In this document: positions 23,035 through 39,256 of the stretch, piece after piece | How positions within the stretch are numbered: position 1 is the first letter of the stretch | How the letters are laid out: each line of letters begins with the position of its first letter | Assembly (NCBI GenBank): GCA_964489295.1 | Contig: CAZAXT010000001.1 | Coordinates: 1 to 55,375 of the forward strand | Direction: 5' to 3' | DNA: 55,375 nt | Source of the DNA: an uncultured Candidatus Saccharibacteria bacterium | GTDB lineage: Bacteria; Patescibacteriota; Saccharimonadia; QS-5-54-17 | Program-made: the position numbers and the translations under genes | The notes under the pieces: generated by a model | The model's input: only the letters and a program-made list of their open reading frames with translations | Databases searched by the model: none | Told to the model about the DNA's origin: nothing

Positions 23035-25125
23035 ATGGGGCAACGGGACTACGCACTAGACGTCACTAGGAACATCGGGACTATTGCCCACATCGATGCC
23101 GGTAAAACAACGGTCACCGAAGGTATACTGTATCGTACTGGTATCGTGCACCGAATTGGTGCGGTTCACGAGGGTGAAGCCACCATGGACTGGATGTCTC
23201 AGGAGCAGGAGCGTGGTATCACCATTACTTCGGCCGCGACCACGTGTTTCTGGAACGACCACCGCATCAACATCATCGATACGCCCGGCCATATCGACTT
23301 TACGGTCGAGGTCGAACGCTCCCTACGGGTGCTTGATGGCGCGGTCGTAATTTTTGACGGCAAGATGGGCGTGGAGCCGCAGTCGGAAACGGTGTGGCAC
23401 CAGGCGGACAAATACCACGTTCCCCGGATATGCTTTATTAATAAGATCAACCAAACCGGTGGCGACTTCTACGAGAGCTTGGAAACCATCCAGGAGCAGC
23501 TCAGCAGTAACGCCTACCCGATCCACTTGCCGATCGGCCATGAACAGGATATCAACGGTGTCGTTGATCTGATCGAAATGAAATCATACACCTATAGCAA
23601 TTACAGCGATAAAGAGCTGCACGTCGATGACGTACCCGAGGATATGCGTGAAAAGTGCGAACGTTATCGCCAGCATTTGATCGAGGGTGCGCTGGAAAAT
23701 GATGACGAGCTGCTGGAGAAGTACCTGGAAACCGGTGATCTGAGTGTGGATGAAATTAAATCCGCTGTCAGAAAGTCAGTGTTGACCGGACAGTTCTTTC
23801 TGATTACCGGCGGCGACGGGCGAGGTGTGATCGTGGAAAAATTACTGGACGCCGTTACTGATTTTCTCCCCAGTCCGCTGGATGTGCCGCCCGCTGAAGG
23901 AGAAGACCCGAAAACCGGTGACACGATTACCCGGACCGCTGATGACGAGGGTCCGTTCGCGGCCTTGGCTTTTAAAATCGCAGCCGATCCGTACGTGGGT
24001 AAACTAACCTTTTTCCGCGTCTATTCGGGCACTCTGAAAACCGGTTCATACGTACTAAATGCCAATACCGGTGAAAAAGAACGCGTCGGAAGAATCGTGC
24101 GACTGCACTCTAACCACCGTGAGGAAGTCGACGAAGTATATACTGGCGATATTGCGGCCGCGGTCGGATTGAAGAAGACGACGACCGGTGACACATTATC
24201 CGAGGCGGACCAACCTATCATGCTGGAGAACATTACGTTTCCCGATCCGCCGGTCCAGGTGGCGATCGAACCCAAGACCAAAGCCGACCAGGAAAAGATG
24301 TCCCAGGCCCTGCAACGTTTGGCCGAAGAAGACCCTACATTTCAGCTGTCCACGGATGAGGAGACCGGACAGACGCTGGTTGCCGGTATGGGCGAATTGC
24401 ACTTACACATCATCGTTGATCGTTTGAAACGCGAGTTCAAAGTCGATGCCAACGTTGGCAACCCGCAGGTAGCCTACCGTGAAGCCATGAAAAAACCGGT
24501 CAAAAATATCGAAGCTCAATTCATCAAACAAAGCGGCGGACGCGGACAGTACGGTCACGTCATCATCGATGCTGAACCTTTGGAGCGCGGGGAAGGGTTC
24601 CAGTTCGAGAACAAGATCGCAGGCGGCGTCATACCCAAAGAATTCATAAATCCGATCGAGCAAGGCATTAAAGAAGCTCTGGCAAGCGGTATTGTGGCCG
24701 GATACCCGGTTATCGACGTAGGAGTCGTGTTGCATGATGGCTCATATCACGAGGTCGACTCTTCGGAGGTCGCTTTCAAAATGGCCGGTTCCATGGCGAT
24801 CCAGGATGCGGTTAAACAATCGAATCCGGTGTTACTAGAGCCGATCATGCGAGTCGACGTTACCATGCCCGAAGAGTTTATGGGTGATGTCATGGGCGAC
24901 ATTAATTCCCGCCGCGGCCGCGTGGAATCCATGGGCGACCGGGCTAAGGCCAAACTCGTCGAAGCTTATGTGCCGCTGGCTGAGATGTTCGGGTACGAAA
25001 CCGATCTCCGCTCTATGACCCAAGGACGAGCGGCCAGCTCGATGGAACTGTCCCATTACGAAGAAGTGCCTTCGAATGTCGCCGAAACTATCATCGGATC
25101 TCAGACGTCCTCCAAAAATGAATAG
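23035..25125 (+). CDS. fusA: Elongation factor G
   Basis: G1 [10 protein letters not shown]3 DTPGH, G4 NKID-type (NKIN), domains II-V; start placed at [15 protein letters not shown]. Confidence 0.97.
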
Positions 25126-25197
25126 ATCTGCGCGGTCGTCTTGTATTGTGCGTAGCGCCCCATGAGATTTCCCGGGTAAAAATTTACCCAACAGGGG

Positions 25198-25226
25198 TTT
25201 ACAAGAACTGCGGCAAAACGTATAAT
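25198..25226 (+). promoter_or_regulatory. Candidate strong sigma70-type promoter for tuf
   Basis: TTTACA, exactly 17 nt, TATAAT; followed by hairpin GCGCC-ATAC-GGCGC in the 5' UTR. Confidence 0.6.
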
Positions 25227-25297
25227 CACAACCTGATGAAAAAGCGCCATACGGCGCCTGATGAATAACAGAGTTAACGCATGTAAGGAGTAATCAC

Positions 25298-26482
25298 ATG
25301 GCTGACTTCCAACGCGATAAGACGCACATCAATGTCGGAACCATGGGACACGTTGACCATGGTAAAACCACATTAACTGCCGCTATCACGACCGTATTGG
25401 CGGAAAAGAATCCAACAGAAACGAACAAAAAGGTCGCTTACGAGCAGATCGACAACGCGCCGGAAGAACGCAACCGCGGCATTACGATCGCTACGTCCCA
25501 CAACGAGTACGAGACCGAAAACCGTCACTACGCCCACGTGGATATGCCCGGCCACGCCGACTACGTCAAGAACATGGTTACCGGTGCTGCCCAGGTAGAC
25601 GGAGCGGTTCTGGTAGTTTCGGCGGCTGACGGTCCGATGCCCCAAACCAGGGAGCACGTGCTTCTGGCCCGCCAGGTTGGCGTACCCAGCGTCGTAGTCT
25701 ACTTGAACAAAACCGATCTGGTTGATGACGATGAACTGGTTGACTTGGTCGAAATGGAAGTCCGTGAACTTCTGGAAGAATATGACTATGACAAAGACGC
25801 GCCTATCGTCAAAGGTTCGGCCCTGAAAGCGGTCGAAGGCGACGAAAAAGAGCAGGATGCCATCATGGAGCTGCTCCAGTCCATGGACGACTACTTCCCC
25901 GAACCCCAACGCGAGCTCGATAAAGATTTCCTGATGCCGATCGAAGACGTCTTTTCCATCAAAGGGCGCGGTACGGTCGCGACCGGTCGTGTTGAGCAAG
26001 GCGAAGTCACCAACGGTGATGACATAGAAATCGTTGGATTGCGCGATACGGTCAAGACGACCGTCACGGGTGTTGAGATGTTCAACAAATCGCTCGATAA
26101 AGGACAAGCTGGCGACAACGTCGGCGTATTGCTCCGCGGCGTTGAGCGGGAAGACATCGAGCGCGGCCAGGTATTAGCCAAACCCGGCACGATTACCCCG
26201 CACACCGAATTCGAAGCCGAAGTCTACGTTCTCAACAAAGATGAAGGCGGCCGGCACACCCCATTCTTCACCGGATATAAGCCCCAGTTTTACTTCCGAA
26301 CCACTGATGTTACCGGCGAGGTTACATTGACCGAGGGGACCGAAATGGTGATGCCGGGTGACAATGCCACGTTCCAAGTCAAGTTGATCCAACCGATCGC
26401 CATGGAAGAAGGACTCCGGTTCGCGATCCGTGAAGGCGGAAAAACGGTCGGCGCCGGTGTTGTGACAAAAATCACCAAATAG
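25298..26482 (+). CDS. tuf: Elongation factor Tu
   Basis: 394 aa; [21 protein letters not shown]; near-canonical EF-Tu throughout. Confidence 0.98.
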
Positions 26483-26511
26483 TTTACGCCAAGAAACATA
26501 AGGCATATCAT
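26483..26511 (+). promoter_or_regulatory. Weak candidate promoter upstream of rpsJ
   Basis: TTTACG, 17-nt spacer, TATCAT directly after the tuf stop; competes with the uORF interpretation. Confidence 0.3.
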
Positions 26512-26569
26512 GAACACATTGACATTCGGTTCCAATATGGCGACAGAAAAGGAGCACTCTCGTGGCTGA
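26510..26569 (+). CDS. Candidate 19-aa upstream ORF overlapping the rpsJ start
   Basis: [19 protein letters not shown]; the TGA lies at +5..+7 of the rpsJ GTG (GTGGCTGA); same geometry as at rpsI. Confidence 0.2.
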
Positions 26570-26879
26570 GGCAACAAAACAGCGTATCCGTATCCGGTTA
26601 AAAGCCTACGATCACAAATTGGTTGATCAATCGGCCAAGCAGATTATCGATACGGCGCTCCGGACCGGAGCCAATGTGTCCGGACCGGTGCCGCTTCCGA
26701 CCGACCGAAGCGAATACACGGTCGTCCGCGGGCCGTTCAAACATAAGGATTCCCGTGAACAATTCGAAATGCGCGTTCATAAACGGTTGATCGATATCAC
26801 CGAACCCACGGACAAAACCATCGACAATCTCATGAACCTGAGTTTACCGACCGGTGTCGATACCGAAATAAAAATGTGA
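26562..26879 (+). CDS. rpsJ: 30S ribosomal protein S10
   Basis: 105 aa; GTG start 6 nt after AAGGAGCA; [14 protein letters not shown]...GPVPLPT typical S10. Confidence 0.96.
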
Positions 26880-26882
26880 CGT

Positions 26883-27329
26883 ATGCGTCAAAAACCGGAG
26901 CGTACTGACATTTCGTTTGGCGGGATACTATTCCAGCATTCTGTCAGTATCGATTCGAAACTTTTGGCGTTACGGCACCGTGCCGGTCACTGGGGACTGC
27001 CAAAGGGGCACTCAGAGCATGATGAGGCCCCAATCCAGACAGCTGAACGTGAAATTCGCGAAGAAACGGGCATCGAGGATGTAAGCTTGCAATCAGAGCC
27101 AACGTTTTCCCAAAAGTACACGTTCGAAGATGACAACACGGTATATCACAAAACCGTAACCTATTTTCTGGGTATGACATCTCAGCACAGGGTAACGACA
27201 CAACCGGCCGAAATCATAGAATATCGATGGGTCGGGCTTGAAGAAGCGCGAGCTCTCCTTGTAGTTAACGGCAATGTCAATGAAGCGCTGGAGCAAGTTC
27301 GGGAGTATCTGCAATCAAAACATATATAA
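26883..27329 (+). CDS. NUDIX hydrolase
   Basis: 148 aa; complete Nudix box GHSEHDEAPIQTAEREIREETGI (G-x5-E-x7-REUxEExGU). Confidence 0.85.
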   Translation: MRQKPERTDISFGGILFQHSVSIDSKLLALRHRAGHWGLPKGHSEHDEAPIQTAEREIREETGIEDVSLQSEPTFSQKYTFEDDNTVYHKTVTYFLGMTSQHRVTTQPAEIIEYRWVGLEEARALLVVNGNVNEALEQVREYLQSKHI

Positions 27330-27384
27330 CCGGTTTGATGTCACGTCTCGTCAAGCAAGCGCAAGTTTGATTTAATAGAAGGTA

Positions 27385-27642
27385 ATGACACGCAACACAT
27401 CCGCCAAACAGACCGAAACCGACTCAGCGTATTTTTTGAAAATATTGCTGTTTTTTATCGTCGGGGCAATCTGGATTGAGATAACGGCCTGGAACGCTTC
27501 TTTGCCGCTCGGATTAGTGCTCGGGTTGGTGTTTGCCAGCCATGATCATTTCCAGATCGACCGGAAGATCGAATACGCGGTACTGCTGATAGCGGCCATC
27601 GTGAGTTTCATCGCGCCGATCGGTATCGTTGCCCAAATATGA
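27385..27642 (+). CDS. Small hypothetical membrane protein (85 aa, 2-3 TM)
   Basis: GAAGG SD; hydrophobic segments FLKILLFFIVGAIWI, LPLGLVLGLVFA, AVLLIAAIVSFIAPIGIV; stop overlaps the next start (ATGA). Confidence 0.55.
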   Translation: MTRNTSAKQTETDSAYFLKILLFFIVGAIWIEITAWNASLPLGLVLGLVFASHDHFQIDRKIEYAVLLIAAIVSFIAPIGIVAQI

Positions 27643-29354
27643 CAGCCCGTTCATACCATACGCCCAGGTCCCGTAAAAAACGACACCGATCCTCCGGGTC
27701 AAAACGGCATAGGCGGCACTGGTTCGTGTACGGAATCGGTCTTGTCGTAGTTATATCCGGAATCGGAGCCGGTGCCTATTGGTGGTACACGCAGCCACGG
27801 ACCGCCGAGATAGCTTACCAGCCGTGCCGGATCGAATACGGCACCGTCGTGGCCGAATGGGAAGGTACGGACAGGGACGCTCCATGGAACGACGCCAACC
27901 ACCACTATCAACTTCGTCGGTTTAGCCTCCGTGCTACGGCGCCGGATGTCTTTTTCCCGAATACGATCGAATCTCCGCCTACCCGGATAGCGACCGGTGG
28001 TGAGGATACCTGCAAGAACGAGTTCGATGAAACAGTGGATGTGGCCGCGGAACGGTATCGATGGCATGGAGCCAGGACAACGGCTCTGCGCCTGGGAAGA
28101 CCGTCCTCAGCACCGTTACCCGGGGCAGTGCGTATGCCGGAGGTTGCCAAACCTGCTGACCCCGGCTTGAAGGTGCCGACGCTTGGAAAACCCCGATCAG
28201 CCGCGGTGTGGGTGGATGATGGCGGGTCGGCGTCGCTCAGTCATGATGGTCAGCGCCAGCAATGGTGGTGCATCAACGCGCCTGGGTGCGGAAGCATCGC
28301 TGGGCAACGCCATAATGCACAGGTTGCACGGGGTGCGGGGTATCAATACGTGCCTGATAATTGTCCGCCGGGTATTTCATGTCATGGTAATTGGCGGGAC
28401 GGAAAAGGTACGCCGCGTGTCATTGGACGCACCCATGGTATGCTGCAGCCGTTCGACATGCGGCTGTCAGCCGTTTCAACCTATGCCGATACGGTCGGAG
28501 CCGCTGTTTTAGTAACGTTCAAATACCCCGAACAAACCACTATACAAACGTCACTCACTGGTACACCGGGAAGTATTGCTCCGGGTGCTTCCTTTGAAAC
28601 TGATCTGACTCTCCATAAGAAAGGTCCGGCCGTGGATTCACTGACCGTGAAGGCCGATACGACCGGCCATCCCATACGCAACAAAGAACCCGTTCGATTA
28701 ACCCGGTCACAGATATCCCGTTTGAATACGGCCGATACGGTCCAACTTCCCGTGCGTTTCCGGTTAAGCGACGAAGCGCAATCCGGGATGTGTCATAGTA
28801 TACCGCTTACCATAGCGAAAGTTGAGGCGGATACGTCTTTAGCGAATCCCGAGGTAGCATATTGCGTGGCAGCCGAGGAAACCCGTATTCAATATCAAGT
28901 GCGCACCCGCGGCGCTATCGACACGAACACCGAAACATTCAAAACCCAGGTGGCTCATACGCTGCGGGATTCTCGCGGGTGGACGGCAGCAAACATTACG
29001 TTTGACCGGGTGGCAAATGGCGGTGATTTCACCTTGTGGTTGGCGTCCGCGGATGCCGTGTCCGATTTTTCCAGCGGATGCAGCCCCCAGTATAGTTGCC
29101 GTGTCGGGTCGAATGTGATCATCAATGATACGCGGTGGCAAAACGCGACACCGGCTTGGAACCAAGCGGGTGGTGGTCTGCGGAATTATCGTCACATGGT
29201 GATCAATCATGAAGTCGGGCATTTTCTCGGGCTCGGGCACCGTAGCTGCCCGGGAGCGGGGCAAGCGGCGCCGATTATGATGCAACAATCGATTGATCTA
29301 GATGGATGCCGGTTTAACCCATGGCCGTTACCGGGAGAACTCGAGCGTATATGA
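27639..29354 (+). CDS. Membrane-anchored protein with C-terminal DUF3152-like zinc metalloprotease motif
   Basis: 571 aa; Arg/Lys-rich N-terminus, TM WFVYGIGLVVVISGIGAGAYWWY, Cys-rich middle region; C-terminus RGW...FDRV...DFTLWLAS...RW...YRHMVINHEVGHFLGLGHRSCPG...APIMMQQS (HExxHxxGxxH); resemblance to actinobacterial DUF3152 is from memory only. Confidence 0.7.
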   Translation: MTARSYHTPRSRKKRHRSSGSKRHRRHWFVYGIGLVVVISGIGAGAYWWYTQPRTAEIAYQPCRIEYGTVVAEWEGTDRDAPWNDANHHYQLRRFSLRATAPDVFFPNTIESPPTRIATGGEDTCKNEFDETVDVAAERYRWHGARTTALRLGRPSSAPLPGAVRMPEVAKPADPGLKVPTLGKPRSAAVWVDDGGSASLSHDGQRQQWWCINAPGCGSIAGQRHNAQVARGAGYQYVPDNCPPGISCHGNWRDGKGTPRVIGRTHGMLQPFDMRLSAVSTYADTVGAAVLVTFKYPEQTTIQTSLTGTPGSIAPGASFETDLTLHKKGPAVDSLTVKADTTGHPIRNKEPVRLTRSQISRLNTADTVQLPVRFRLSDEAQSGMCHSIPLTIAKVEADTSLANPEVAYCVAAEETRIQYQVRTRGAIDTNTETFKTQVAHTLRDSRGWTAANITFDRVANGGDFTLWLASADAVSDFSSGCSPQYSCRVGSNVIINDTRWQNATPAWNQAGGGLRNYRHMVINHEVGHFLGLGHRSCPGAGQAAPIMMQQSIDLDGCRFNPWPLPGELERI

Positions 29355-29392
29355 TACCGTCATTCGACCCCGGACTCATGGAAGTGCTCCAG

Positions 29393-29422
29393 TTGACATC
29401 TGTTTCACGGTGTTGATATACT
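29393..29422 (+). promoter_or_regulatory. Candidate sigma70-type promoter restarting the S10 operon at rplC
   Basis: TTGACA (29393-29398), 18-nt spacer, TATACT (29417-29422); the approximately 100-nt leader contains hairpin GTGCCGT-N11-ACGGCAC. Confidence 0.5.
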
Positions 29423-29526
29423 CACTCGAGTATTCCTGACACGGGGAGCAGGACAGTAACTCCTGTATAAGTGCCGTTGCCGAAAGGGACGGCACGATTT
29501 ATGGATGATGTATAGCGAGGATATAA

Positions 29527-30129
29527 ATGAAAGCATTACTCGGGCGCAAGCTCGGTATGAGCCAGATATTTTCCGAGGAAGGGACCGCGACACCAGTCAC
29601 GCTGGTGCAGGCCGGCCCGTGTACCGTGGTCGGACTTCGAACAGCGGAAACCGATGGCTATGCGGCCGTGCAGCTAGGATTTGAAACCGATAAACATCCC
29701 AAGAAACCACAACAAGGGCAGTTCACGGATGCGAACGCAACTCCTCGGTATGTCCGTGAAATCCGCGGTGAGCATGAAGTCCAAACCGGCGACACGCTTC
29801 AGGCGGACGTATTCGAAGCCGGAGACACCCTGACCGTAACCGGAACCAGTAAAGGACAGGGTTTTACGGGCACGATCAAGCGGTACAATTTCAGTCGTGG
29901 TCCAGAAACCCATGGTTCACGCAACCAGCGCAGACCTGGATCAATCGGTGGCATGTATCCCCAAAAAGTATGGAAGGGCAAAAAGATGCCAGGCCGGAGC
30001 GGCAACGAAACGATTACCCAAAAAAACCGAGCAGTTGTCGCGGTAGACACTGCAAACAACATCATAGCCATTAAAGGCGCCGTACCCGGCAAACGAGATG
30101 GACTCGTTGTTTTGAAAGGAGACTCGTAA
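29527..30129 (+). CDS. rplC: 50S ribosomal protein L3
   Basis: MKALLGRKLGMSQIF..., FTGTIKRYNF typical L3. Confidence 0.96.
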   Translation: MKALLGRKLGMSQIFSEEGTATPVTLVQAGPCTVVGLRTAETDGYAAVQLGFETDKHPKKPQQGQFTDANATPRYVREIRGEHEVQTGDTLQADVFEAGDTLTVTGTSKGQGFTGTIKRYNFSRGPETHGSRNQRRPGSIGGMYPQKVWKGKKMPGRSGNETITQKNRAVVAVDTANNIIAIKGAVPGKRDGLVVLKGDS

Positions 30130-30767
30130 TGGCGACCGCCCCGACGTTTACCAAGACCGGTAACGCTTCATCGCGTAACACGACACTTCCCGAATCGGTA
30201 TTTTCGACGCCTTCAATTTCCCATGATCTGCTGCATCAGGCATATGTCGTTCAGCGCTCTCACGACCACGCACACGGAGCACACACTAAGAGTCGTGGTG
30301 ATGTTCGTGCCAGCGGTCGGAAGATCAAGCCGCAGAAATACACTGGTGGAGCCCGTGCCGGAACTAGCACCAGTCCGATGCGTCGGGGCGGTGGGGTCGC
30401 GTTCGGTCCCAAGGGCAGCGAAGTACGACGGAAACAGATTAACAAATCAGCTAAACGAGCAGCTCTCCGACACGCCTTGTCACTCCAAGCCCGGGAAGAA
30501 GCAGTCGTCGTCATAGAGGACTTTGCGCTTGACGGAAAAACCAAATCCGCTCGAACGTTGCTCGACTCTTTACCGGTTCAAGGCACAATCGTGTGTGTGG
30601 TTGAGCAATTCGACTCCCTTATACAACGGAGCCTGCGGAATATCCCGAACGTATTTTTGACGGATTCGGCCTCCTTGAACGTAGTCGATGTGGTGGATGC
30701 GGATTATGTAGTATTCACCCGGAACGGGCTGAACGCAATGCAACAGAGAATGGAGGCGTCGTCATGA
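30129..30767 (+). CDS. rplD: 50S ribosomal protein L4
   Basis: 212 aa; S10-operon position, KPQKYTGGARAGTSTSPMRRGGGVAFGP motif; TAATG overlap with rplC. Confidence 0.95.
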   Translation: MATAPTFTKTGNASSRNTTLPESVFSTPSISHDLLHQAYVVQRSHDHAHGAHTKSRGDVRASGRKIKPQKYTGGARAGTSTSPMRRGGGVAFGPKGSEVRRKQINKSAKRAALRHALSLQAREEAVVVIEDFALDGKTKSARTLLDSLPVQGTIVCVVEQFDSLIQRSLRNIPNVFLTDSASLNVVDVVDADYVVFTRNGLNAMQQRMEASS

Positions 30768-35642: not shown

Positions 35643-36028
35643 TGTTCGACCCGATAGCCGATATGCTGACCAGAATCAGGAATGCGACTGCCGTGAACAA
35701 AACCGTGGTAGATGTCCCGTATTCAAAGGCCAAAGCCTCCATAGCCGAGGTTTTAACCAATTACGGTTATGTGGCCGGGTATGAAGTAACCGATGACGCG
35801 AAGCCGCTCGTCCGCCTTCAACTTCAGGAAGAAGGCCAGGCGAATCCGATTACCGAAATACACCGCATCTCCAAGCCCGGACGCCGCGTGTATGCTCCAG
35901 CGGATGAAATACCGACCGTTTTGCGGGGCAGGGGTATGGTAATACTTTCCACTTCCAGTGGCGTCATGAGCGGTTCTGATGCCCGCCAACAGGGAGTTGG
36001 TGGTGAAATAATGTGTAAAGTGTGGTAG
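35639..36028 (+). CDS. rpsH: 30S ribosomal protein S8
   Basis: [13 protein letters not shown] signature. Confidence 0.95.
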
Positions 36029-37871: not shown

Positions 37872-39176
37872 ATGCAACACGGGCGATTAAAACAGTTACT
37901 GACCAATCGTGACATCAGAAAACGCTTACTTGGCGTTTTCGGTATCATATTCCTGTTTCGTGTGCTTGCGCATATCCCGATCCCGATCGGTGATACGACA
38001 ACTCTGAAACAATTTCTGGAAAACATTCTCTCTTCCAACCAACTGTTCGGTCTGGTCGATTTGTTCTCGGGAGGGGCGGTGGCCAACTTTTCCATCGCCA
38101 TTATCGGGTTGGCGCCTTTTATTAACGCGTCCATCATCATGCAGTTACTGTCGTATGCTCTGCCAAAGTTCTCAGAGCTGAAAAAGGAAGGAGAAGAAGG
38201 CCGGCGCAAGATCAACCAATACACCCGGTATTTGACACTTCCTTTAGCGATCGGACAGTCGATCGGCACCATCTTTTTTATCAGGCAATTGGCTATACAG
38301 CAGACCCAGACCGACATCATCGGCGACCCGACTCTCGCCGAGTGGGCGGTCATGGTAACCTGTATTACCGGTGGCAGTATGTTGCTGATGTGGCTGGGCG
38401 AAATCGCGACCGAGAAGGGGGTCGGTAACGGCATTTCAATCCTGATCGCCTCCAGTATCATCGCTCAGTTGCCGAACATCTTTGGTCAGGCGCTGTCCCT
38501 GGCTCAAGCCAGCAGTCAGCAAATGATGACCGTCATCCTATTCGCGGCCGGCGCGTTAGTCGTCACTTACTTCATCGTCAAACTGAATGAAGCCCAACGG
38601 ACGGTCCGGGTGTCCTATGCCAAACGTATGCAGGCGAGCGGGTACGGCGGCGTGGAATCAGAGCTGCCTATACGTGTTTTGACCGCCGGTGTCATCCCGA
38701 TTATCTTTGCCATTGCCTTTATGTCTGTACCGACGTTTCTGGGTCAGCTCTTTCAAAACGCCGATGCGGTCTGGTTGGCCGAGTTTGCGACCAATCTGAC
38801 AGTCTGGTTCAACCCGTCCAGTGCTATCTATGCGGTTGCCTACTTCGGGCTGGTTATCGCTTTTACGTACTTTTACACCGGCATTGCTTTCAACCCCACT
38901 GATATCGCGGAAAACCTGCAAAAACAAGGCGGGTTTATTCCCGGCATTCGACCCGGGAAACAGACCGAGGAATATTTACGACGCATTGTTAATCGCATCA
39001 CGCTGTTCGGTTCTGTCAGCCTCGGTGTCATCGCCGTACTCCCCTTTATCGGTGAACAGCTAACCGGGAGTTCGGTGTTGACATTCGGCGGTACTGGGCT
39101 GTTAATTGTTGTCAGTGTCGCGATCCAGACTATGCGGCAACTCGATTCACAGATTATTAGTGCGTCGTATGAATAA
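37872..39176 (+). CDS. secY: Preprotein translocase subunit SecY
   Basis: 434 aa; 10-TM pattern, LGIMPYISASII-like GLAPFINASIIMQLL, GGTGLLIVV. Confidence 0.96.
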   Translation: MQHGRLKQLLTNRDIRKRLLGVFGIIFLFRVLAHIPIPIGDTTTLKQFLENILSSNQLFGLVDLFSGGAVANFSIAIIGLAPFINASIIMQLLSYALPKFSELKKEGEEGRRKINQYTRYLTLPLAIGQSIGTIFFIRQLAIQQTQTDIIGDPTLAEWAVMVTCITGGSMLLMWLGEIATEKGVGNGISILIASSIIAQLPNIFGQALSLAQASSQQMMTVILFAAGALVVTYFIVKLNEAQRTVRVSYAKRMQASGYGGVESELPIRVLTAGVIPIIFAIAFMSVPTFLGQLFQNADAVWLAEFATNLTVWFNPSSAIYAVAYFGLVIAFTYFYTGIAFNPTDIAENLQKQGGFIPGIRPGKQTEEYLRRIVNRITLFGSVSLGVIAVLPFIGEQLTGSSVLTFGGTGLLIVVSVAIQTMRQLDSQIISASYE

Positions 39177-39227: not shown

Positions 39228-39256
39228 TTTACAGGGTGATAAAAAGTGCGTATAAT
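39228..39256 (+). promoter_or_regulatory. Candidate strong sigma70-type promoter for infA-rpmJ-alpha operon
   Basis: TTTACA, exactly 17 nt, TATAAT, 21 nt upstream of the infA ATG. Confidence 0.6.

Follow-up and report, generated by a model that had tools for sequence, protein, structure and literature searches.

The rpsJ-rplC gap of an uncultured Candidatus Saccharibacteria genome as a probable, layered operon boundary typical of Saccharimonadia

A ribosomal gene order in which a tuf-rps10 block lies apart from the rpl3 cluster is a known kind of organisation, and it occurs in cyanobacteria and archaea. Red-algal plastids are arranged likewise, with a rps12-rps7-tufA-rps10 block and with rpl3 at the head of a large cluster (PMC5217408). 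In Escherichia coli, the S10 operon carries an L4-responsive leader before rpsJ, which acts through both attenuation and translational control (Zengel & Lindahl; Fu et al. 2013, PMC3616713). The present analysis concerns the space between rpsJ (encoding S10) and rplC (encoding L3) in contig CAZAXT010000001.1 of assembly GCA_964489295.1, from an uncultured Candidatus Saccharibacteria bacterium; the window, that is the whole stretch of DNA analysed, comprises 55,375 nucleotides (nt). The two genes are separated there by genes for a NUDIX hydrolase, for a small membrane protein of 85 amino acids (aa), hereafter mem85, and for a protein with a DUF3152 domain. A preliminary description of the stretch had read these three genes as a single cassette recently inserted into one of the most conserved gene pairs of bacteria. 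Adjacency of rpsJ and rplC is not a universal rule, as their separation in red-algal plastids illustrates (PMC5217408), and it is probable that the locus, taken as a whole, represents a layered, lineage-typical operon boundary of Saccharimonadia and not an insertion event in this particular genome.

The genome analysed, hereafter G000, is a draft assembly comprising 32 contigs (624 kb) at 88% completeness, and the class considered is Saccharimonadia (Saccharibacteria) within Patescibacteria. Both rpsJ and rplC were located in 200 other genomes of the class, and distances were computed where the two lie on one contig and strand. Among the 98 genomes with both genes on one contig, the median gap is 2239 bp: four gaps are shorter than 300 bp, 23 measure 0.3 to 1 kb, 65 measure 1 to 10 kb and six exceed 10 kb. 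Patescibacteria of other classes (n = 126) have a median gap of 160 bp, with about 90 of them below 300 bp and 12 having the genes at least 1 kb apart or rearranged. Given medians of 2239 bp inside the class and 160 bp outside it, the break is therefore a trait of the class and not of the phylum. It is probably an inherited, class-wide operon boundary, at which rpsJ stays with fusA-tuf and rplC would open a separate ribosomal unit.

The space between the two genes is a slot which collects variable genes. Open reading frames (ORFs) were called at the junction of 20 genomes from 14 families and then clustered; the cargo differs by family and includes an MgsA/RarA ATPase, a CTP synthase, a pilin-like protein, an ABC-F ATPase, a DUF4870 protein and other membrane proteins. 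The sole gap gene to be widely shared is a homologue of mem85, present at 13 of the 20 loci. Three complete genomes of one genus (G133, G136 and G154) keep rpsJ and mem85 together and have rplC 165-172 kb away, and in two congeners (G049 and G180) rpsJ, mem85 and rplC all fall within 600 bp, with a gap of about 590 bp. The rearrangement in this genus is recent and lies exactly at the boundary between mem85 and the rplC promoter.

Within the window, the features that make up or flank the boundary are the following.

25198-25226, + strand: promoter-like site before tuf, TTTACA-17-TATAAT, found by promoter scan
25298..26482, + strand: tuf (EF-Tu), from the ORF list
26562..26879, + strand: rpsJ (S10), GTG start and TGA stop; PF00338 3e-36, NF001861 3.8e-46
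26883..27329, + strand: NUDIX hydrolase, 148 aa; PF00293 5e-17; ATG start 3 nt past the rpsJ stop
27385..27642, + strand: mem85, 85 aa, three hydrophobic helices; GAAGG Shine-Dalgarno 5 nt upstream
27639..29354, + strand: DUF3152 protein, 571 aa; PF11350 2.8e-25 at residues 404-555; ATG overlapping the mem85 stop (ATGA)
29393..29422, + strand: predicted sigma-70-type rplC promoter, TTGACA-N18-TATACT; 11/12 match, TG-extended -10
29429..29526, + strand: rplC leader, about 98 nt, with hairpins A and B; fold z = -2.5 against shuffles
29527..30129, + strand: rplC (L3), TIGR03625 9.5e-70; first gene of rplC-rplD-rplW-rplB-...
35648..36025, + strand: rpsH (S8), PF00410 3.6e-45; within the unit downstream of rplC

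In G000, rpsJ closes a str-like block, rpsL-rpsG-fusA-tuf-rpsJ, with a tuf-rpsJ spacer of 79 nt, and its stop lies 2647 nt before the rplC start, which agrees with the split of about 2.65 kb and with the gene content first reported. The compact arrangement of the block was likewise described correctly, with the NUDIX gene starting 3 nt past rpsJ and ATGA coupling of the 85-aa membrane protein to the 571-aa HExxH protein; the spacer between the NUDIX gene and mem85 measures 55 nt and the ATGA overlap 4 nt. The rpsJ stop and the NUDIX start are both contained in TGACGTATGCGTCA (26877-26890), a perfect palindrome of 14 nt that could form a small hairpin at the site of reinitiation. Neither a terminator nor a strong promoter was found among rpsJ and the three accessory genes of G000. 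Since the spacers are this short and no terminator intervenes, the NUDIX, mem85 and DUF3152 genes would be read through from the tuf/rpsJ transcript. The same transcript had been proposed earlier; it is plausible in G000, where terminator and strong promoter are lacking, and it does not hold generally, as four sister genera carry a terminator behind rpsJ.

The oldest layer would be mem85, class-wide and always found in the rpsJ-rplC slot. A profile of the protein matches 126 of 201 class genomes (80 of 117 genera), mostly in single copy. Where all three genes are listed on one contig, in 66 genomes, mem85 is without exception flanked by rpsJ and rplC and shares their strand, and 41 more genomes, for which one flank only is listed, agree with this position. 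Its end is 162-250 nt before rplC in 27 genomes, a distance taken up by promoter and leader only. Five genomes outside the class with large rpsJ-rplC gaps were searched and mem85 was not found in them. From this distribution, mem85 is probably the ancestral resident of the gap in the class, which assumes losses or divergence past detection elsewhere.

The protein itself forms an orphan family. A database search returned 742 homologues of 80-115 aa; none has a Pfam domain, and each is either labelled 'hypothetical' or named inconsistently. The names given by JGI to some of them (EutH, NhaP, fatty-acid transporter) contradict each other and were disregarded. The closest named homologue belongs to 'Candidatus Saccharibacteria bacterium SW_7_54_9', and homologues of both mem85 and the DUF3152 protein are titled Candidatus Saccharibacteria, Saccharimonadales and Nanosyncoccaceae. 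No match to mem85 was obtained in Pfam or NCBIfam, the best hit of a profile search against the PDB had an E of 0.68, and the best Foldseek hit an E of 3.3. An alignment of 24 sequences displays a basic N-terminal tail, three hydrophobic segments and the nearly invariant residues F-A-S-H-D-H-F-Q-I-D-R-K-I-E-Y, the near-invariant motif being FASHDHFQIDRKIEY. The AlphaFold model (predicted local distance difference test, pLDDT, 78) places helices at 13-27, 42-52 and 60-76.

A cultured member of the group provides an experimental hint. In Southlakia epibionticum ML1, EF-Tu (SEML1_0477) is followed by S10 (SEML1_0476), a hypothetical gene of 321 nt (SEML1_0475) and L3 (SEML1_0474), and in transposon sequencing (Tn-seq) SEML1_0475 was non-essential at all three time points, with 21-26 insertions, S10 and L3 being essential (PMC10633639 Table S1). 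The spacers on either side of SEML1_0475, 148 nt and 171 nt, correspond to the mem85 geometry of one family of the class (f6). That insertions are tolerated in SEML1_0475, just upstream of the essential rplC, fits an independent transcription of rplC from a promoter of its own.

The DUF3152 gene is a family-level layer, added behind mem85 in the ancestor of the family. Seven other genomes of this family (G001-G007), from six genera, were compared: G001 belongs to the genus of G000, G005 to its sister genus, and G002, G004, G006 and G007 to four further genera, with G008 representing a neighbouring family. The gene lies in the gap directly behind mem85 in all seven and in G008, at a spacing of -4 to +14 nt, so the two would have stayed tightly coupled since the protease joined; a second genome of the neighbouring family has mem85 142 nt from rplC and no protease. 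In G007 (C1, locus 2560-5361), where the gap reaches 5.2 kb, three more genes of 291, 259 and 349 aa stand between the DUF3152 gene and the rplC promoter, and their products are repetitive and rich in Gly, Ser and Thr, resembling tail fibres.

The DUF3152 protein is predicted, from its fold and conserved residues, to be a metzincin-like zinc ectoprotease. The Pfam score is 89.6 bits against a gathering threshold of 25.1. The AlphaFold model (22-sequence alignment, pLDDT 83) comprises a basic N-terminal tail, a transmembrane helix at 25-51, an ectodomain rich in beta-sandwiches at 54-410 and the C-terminal DUF3152 domain, with a pLDDT of about 90 for the last. The zinc site HEVGHFLGLGH (HExxHxxGxxH) occupies 524-534, and H524, E525, H528, G531, H534 and M547 are invariant in the 22 sequences, columns which amount to a metzincin signature with a candidate Met-turn. 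Foldseek aligned the C-terminal domain with MMP-1 (1ayk, TMt 0.57) and MMP-8 (3tt4, TMt 0.55), both at a probability of 1.00, and the middle region with immunoglobulin-like, adhesin and GH2 beta-sandwiches at low TM. Three 14-mers resembling GCCGATACGGTCGG, 168 and 78 nt apart, lie at 28485-28756 in the beta-sandwich region and may represent an internal domain repeat. The public gene call starts the protein 29 codons later, at 27726 (542 aa), and so loses the basic RSRKKRHRSSGSKRHRRH tail and the ATGA coupling; the long form is favoured because relatives align from residue 1-12 and because the tight spacing to the small gene is conserved. In the literature, the only mention of DUF3152 that was found is in a computational adhesin screen.

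The origin of this layer may lie outside the class. The nearest relatives of the domain beyond Saccharibacteria come from Nocardioides, Marmoricola and Aeromicrobium, at 55-61% identity, which is as close as other families of Saccharimonadia. In a quick, unrooted maximum-likelihood tree of 136 domains, Saccharimonadia form one clade that includes the copies outside the gap (SH-aLRT 86), sister to the Nocardioides/Marmoricola/Aeromicrobium (Nocardioidaceae-type) clade (SH-aLRT 94). This topology would fit one old exchange with Actinobacteria followed by vertical descent. Most PF11350 proteins known are actinobacterial. Actinobacteria are the hosts of cultivated Saccharibacteria (PMC10633639), and the pair of mem85 and protease would act on the cell surface, where it may plausibly take part in the contact between epibiont and actinobacterial host.

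A stronger version of this idea holds that the protease, possibly together with a remodelling of the leader, was taken from an actinobacterial host and fixed with mem85 as a surface module used on that host. The sister relationship of the clades at 55-61% identity, the mainly actinobacterial distribution of the family, the spacing of -4 to +14 nt kept across genera and the epibiotic life of cultivated relatives (PMC10633639) all speak for it. Against it, the tree was made by a quick method, is unrooted and has mostly unnamed rows; DUF3152 genes of Saccharimonadia outside the family do not adjoin mem85 (G031, L014-L019); and most of the class retains mem85 in the absence of the protease, so that mem85 does not need it. 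Capture from a host is accordingly regarded as a real possibility, but one we would not favour.

The youngest layer is the NUDIX gene, confined to the genus of G000 and its sister genus, where it arrived by relocation or by new gain. In a tblastn search it was found in the gap only in G000, G001 and G005. The proteins of G000 and G001, members of the same genus, share 40% identity, and that of G005 (C10, about 3520-3950, minus strand) aligns in three frames with breaks at homopolymers (GGGGGG, AAAA), which points to a decaying pseudogene or else to an error of sequencing. The genomes G002, G004, G006 and G007 have a hairpin-plus-U-run terminator directly after rpsJ, where the NUDIX gene sits in G000; the gene would have joined directly behind rpsJ, in the ancestor of the two genera, at the place of the rpsJ terminator of the other genera. 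NUDIX paralogues with 31-38% identity are carried elsewhere by family genomes, and the best match in G002, a reciprocal-best hit that is 35% identical, also lies elsewhere, its flanks mapping to two other contigs of G000. The Nudix box is complete, GHSEHDE APIQTAE REIREETGI (GX5EX7REUXEEXGU), and PF00293 scores 62.5 bits against a threshold of 21.1; all 22 matches to NCBIfam were far under their cut-offs, the best being NudB-like with 42 bits against 103. The enzyme is predicted to be a housekeeping pyrophosphatase acting on nucleotides or on RNA 5' ends.

Beyond the three genes, the boundary is marked by a promoter. The site at 29393..29422, with TTGACA at 29393-98 and TATACT at 29417-22, is the best + strand match of the window scan between 25.2 and 39.2 kb, and no other + strand promoter-like site of at least 10/12 was seen from 29.4 to 39.2 kb. 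At 39228-39256, a second strong promoter-like site of the ribosomal cluster, TTTACA-17-TATAAT (11/12), lies behind a 12-bp hairpin (39069-39100) and is the probable start of the next unit. Among 67 upstream regions of the class, 63 hold a TTGACN-N16-18-TAnnnT element that ends 85-162 nt (median 124) before rplC, against about one in 67 for shuffles. The element is present even where the gap is only 150-240 bp, and the rplC promoter is therefore more universal than mem85. A promoter and a structured leader of about 100 nt had been described for rplC and both are indeed present; the view of this promoter as fresh does not stand, the element being shared by 63 of 67 relatives. The conserved promoter-like site, the rpsJ terminators of sister genera and the insertions tolerated in the Southlakia gap gene would be compatible with rplC as the head of its own unit, and the genes from rplC onward would be transcribed mainly from their own promoter.

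In most of the class the promoter is followed by a leader RNA, consisting of an irregular hairpin of 55-75 nt, a U-run and the Shine-Dalgarno sequence. Alignment of 24 leaders with MAFFT and RNAalifold misaligned the 3' strand, gave only eight pairs and was replaced by a seed structured by hand. Eight well-anchored leaders of this seed yielded a covariance model (R1), which was iterated once to give R2. Across 36 leaders from many families, 90.7% of the cells pair, compared with 74.9% after shuffling (0 of 500 shuffles as high); compensatory changes occur in 12 of 16 pairs, with 108 doubly changed cells against 33 in shuffles, and slid controls reach at most 47%. Searched against whole genomes, R2 gave one strong match per genome in 72 of 150 class genomes, and in all 52 scorable genomes this match lies upstream of rplC, at 2-42 nt, with one of them at 175 nt. 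In 142 genomes outside the class it returned four chance-level matches, away from rpsJ and rplC. The weak secondary matches in G044, G117 and G080, considered as possible copies of helix 21 (h21) of 16S rRNA, proved to be ordinary terminator hairpins and no rRNA.

The core of the class-wide leader resembles a protein-binding site. Its columns in the 36 leaders read A (33/36), G (35), G (36), U (34), C (31) on the 5' side and G (32), A (35), N (27 A, 9 U), A (35), C (36), C (35) on the 3' side. The S8 site of 16S rRNA is built from an A595-(A596-U644) triple, replaced by G595-(C596-G644) in Thermus, together with G597-C643, A640, a variable 641 and an invariant A642 (PMC4176348). The leader core matches this site position by position (A595, N596-N644, G597-C643, A640, N641, A642), and in families f6 and f17 the sequence is AAGUC...GAUACU, with the 596-644 pair covarying. 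The gene for S8, rpsH, lies 6 kb downstream of the rplC leader in the same unit, without a strong promoter between. Feedback by S8 is the best hypothesis for the class-wide leader, with S8 as the candidate repressor, and the leader may be an S8-responsive attenuator or translational operator of the unit of about 10 kb that encodes S8. Should this be true, a leader with an S8-site core would represent a novel way for minimal-genome bacteria to achieve ribosomal-protein feedback.

In G000 the leader is a simplified, lineage-specific version of the class-wide one. Hairpin A spans 29449-29465; hairpin B (29471-29495), GUGCCGU UGCC-GAAA-GGGA ACGGCAC, is a perfect 7+3-bp stem closed by a GAAA loop and followed by GAUUUAUGG, and a weak AU helix encloses the Shine-Dalgarno GAGGA (29517-29521). 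Hairpin B is common to G000, G001 and G005, with one compensatory change (U-A to C-G). The hairpin of G002, G004, G006 and G007 is different, CUGCUAGAAGAUACC...GGUAUAAUUCGUAGCAG, and is followed by UAUUUUUAUG. In G004 and G006, about 30-40 additional codons (MADKSDNQ...) seem to be present at the N-terminus of rplC, downstream of the leader hairpin and ahead of the conserved MKA start. A search of Rfam with the window at 25100-30200 (E<=5) and with the gaps of 12 relatives produced no leader family, only chance matches (snoZ256, His_leader, rimP); the structural homology of the rplC leader that had been suggested as a check thus found no Rfam counterpart, and, as anticipated, no L4 leader of the E. 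coli type is detectable upstream of rpsJ (Rfam, E<=5).

The lineage with the protease between mem85 and the promoter is also the one without the canonical leader, a single correlated event. A wider scenario joins these observations: control of the main ribosomal-protein cluster would have been re-wired, with an attenuator mimicking the S8 site that governs, from before rplC, more than 20 genes of a fused S10+spc unit; the break this produced behind rpsJ would have turned into a permanent cargo slot with mem85, a new membrane protein family tied to this locus, as its single constant tenant; and insertion of a surface metzincin of actinobacterial host origin between mem85 and the promoter would have cost the family of G000 the S8 loop, leaving a natural 'knock-out' lineage of this feedback. 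As a complete chain of events this is tentative and somewhat doubtful. In the family of G000 the S8-like loop would have been lost, and the plain hairpin may affect only mRNA stability or access to the Shine-Dalgarno sequence.

The simplified leader of G000 might instead still serve as an autoregulatory site for L4, L3 or S8, by means of hairpin B and the helix that encloses the Shine-Dalgarno sequence. In favour of this, G001 and G005 share hairpin B with a compensatory change, the hairpin stands in the position of the class hairpin directly before a U-rich stretch and the Shine-Dalgarno, and the leader folds better than shuffles (z = -2.5). AAGUG, with which hairpin B begins, is also found in the 5' strand of the S8 site in the organism's own 16S h21 (contig C23), a site which reads AAGUG...CAAACU, has its 599-639 pair swapped to G-C relative to C599-G639 of E. 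coli and carries an A at 641. Against this, the stem is perfectly Watson-Crick paired and has none of the A640-N641-A642 asymmetric loop that S8 needs; only three U follow hairpin B, and none in G001; and three sequences provide minimal evidence of covariation. A retained regulatory role of the G000 leader therefore seems rather unlikely, and loss of the S8-like loop in the family is preferred.

Recent insertion of the NUDIX, membrane and DUF3152 genes as one unit between adjacent rpsJ and rplC, followed by the birth of a new rplC promoter, would account for the co-orientation and tight packing of the genes (3 nt, 55 nt and a 4-nt overlap), for the drift in GC across the block from 0.46 in the NUDIX gene to 0.61 in the 5' half of the DUF3152 gene, and for a GC content at third codon positions (GC3) of the NUDIX gene 2 standard deviations below the genome mean. 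The three genes, however, are of three phyletic depths, and both gap and promoter predate all of them: the class shares the break, mem85 and the rplC promoter, the family shares the DUF3152 gene, and only the NUDIX gene is young. Composition between 26.5 and 29.6 kb, proposed earlier as a check, does not indicate an insertion. Measured against 286 long ORFs of G000, the codon-choice z is -0.9 for NUDIX, 0.1 for mem85 and -0.9 for DUF3152, all within 1 standard deviation and within the range of rplC and rplD, the GC3 z of the NUDIX gene being -2.0; codon usage of the three genes is native-like. The block is not bracketed by repeats, direct or inverted, and neither tRNA nor integrase or other mobility genes flank it; a mobile element was ruled out on these grounds. 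A clade-wide cassette of native composition had been named at the outset as the mark of an old lineage feature, and this is largely what was found. The single-insertion account, and with it the novelty of a recent event, is contradicted by synteny and very improbable. A split that merely reflects a chimeric contig, produced in assembly or binning, for which only the draft state of G000 (32 contigs, 88% completeness) could be adduced, is next to impossible, as the same order recurs in eight independent genomes of the family and the neighbouring family and the split recurs in many single-contig genomes of the class and in cultured Southlakia.

Several observations weigh against the reading of the locus as a layered boundary or narrow its reach. 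The mem85 gene was undetected in 75 of 201 class genomes, including all 14 of family f8, and the likeness of SEML1_0475 to mem85 is suggested solely by size and spacing. The functions put forward for the NUDIX, mem85 and DUF3152 proteins are predictions from family or fold alone, and the DUF3152 tree, being unrooted, leaves the direction of transfer unset. The covariation alignment was fitted to its model and the shuffles ignore phylogeny, so its figures are supportive and do not amount to proof. R2 matches neither the window of G000 nor its family (0/7), the neighbouring family (0/2) or families f6, f10 and f17, and the S8 reading therefore says nothing direct about G000. In a regular-expression scan, the S8-like motif was absent from every intergenic spacer of the window, its three matches all being coding, and hairpin B, although it starts with AAGUG, is without the asymmetric A-N-A loop of an S8 site.

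The layered boundary has consequences for practice. The synteny of rpsJ and rplC is taken for granted in concatenations of 16 'syntenic' ribosomal proteins, used for candidate-phyla phylogenies, and in contig binning, and a class in which S10 lies kilobases, and up to 170 kb, from L3 bears on both. The papers searched yielded no description of the Saccharimonadia boundary with its cargo slot, of mem85 or of the S8-like leader; the features for which no description was found are thus a class-spread small membrane protein, a conserved rplC promoter and a covarying leader RNA with an S8-site core. As for G000 itself, its 'insertion' was passed down by descent; what is recent is the NUDIX layer alone, together with the predicted fusion of rpsJ and NUDIX into one transcript. 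Its family is notable mainly for the plain hairpin that replaces the canonical leader and for the Actinobacteria-like surface protease in the slot. Genetics exist for Saccharibacteria, and the rpsJ promoter of TM7x has been used as a strong promoter (PMC10633639); the predictions made here are therefore testable.

Among known proteins, the NUDIX hydrolase shares its complete Nudix box with NudB, MutT and RppH; unlike them, it reaches no equivalog cut-off, and it is only 40% identical to its counterpart in the same genus. The DUF3152 protein has in common with actinobacterial DUF3152/MMP metzincins the HExxHxxGxxH site, an invariant Met 13 residues on and an MMP-like fold, and the Saccharibacteria version differs in its signal-anchor helix, its beta-sandwich stalk of about 350 aa without a Pfam match, its ribosomal neighbourhood and its coupling to mem85.

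As regards regulation, the locus resembles the E. coli S10 operon in that a structured leader with a terminator-like hairpin heads rplC-rplD-rplW-rplB..., and feedback by a downstream protein is the likely logic in most of the class. It differs in that the leader stands before rplC with rpsJ outside the unit, without an Rfam leader match, and in that the core of the class leader is S8-site-like and not L4-like, G000 having only the simplified hairpin. In place of rpsJ and then rplC in one unit, as in an S10 operon of the E. coli type, G000 has a 2647-nt gap with three genes and a promoter. With the S8 operator of the E. coli spc operon (PMC4176348; PMC3616713), the class leader shares the core A-N-G-U-C / G-A-N-A-C-N', in which N-N' is a Watson-Crick pair, and the presence of rpsH in the unit. 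Its position differs, being about 20 nt upstream of rplC, where the fused S10+spc unit begins, and not at the start of rplE, and the U-run behind it suggests attenuation beyond translational occlusion; in the window of G000 and in its family the operator-like loop is absent.

A comparable arrangement is that of plastids, cyanobacteria and archaea, where, as here, rpsJ directly follows tuf and rplC is separate. Inside Patescibacteria the split is of independent origin, the two genes being adjacent in the other classes. Unlike in those lineages, the two blocks are still neighbours in most genomes of the class, and their junction is a slot for non-ribosomal cargo that carries a lineage-specific small membrane gene and a leader.

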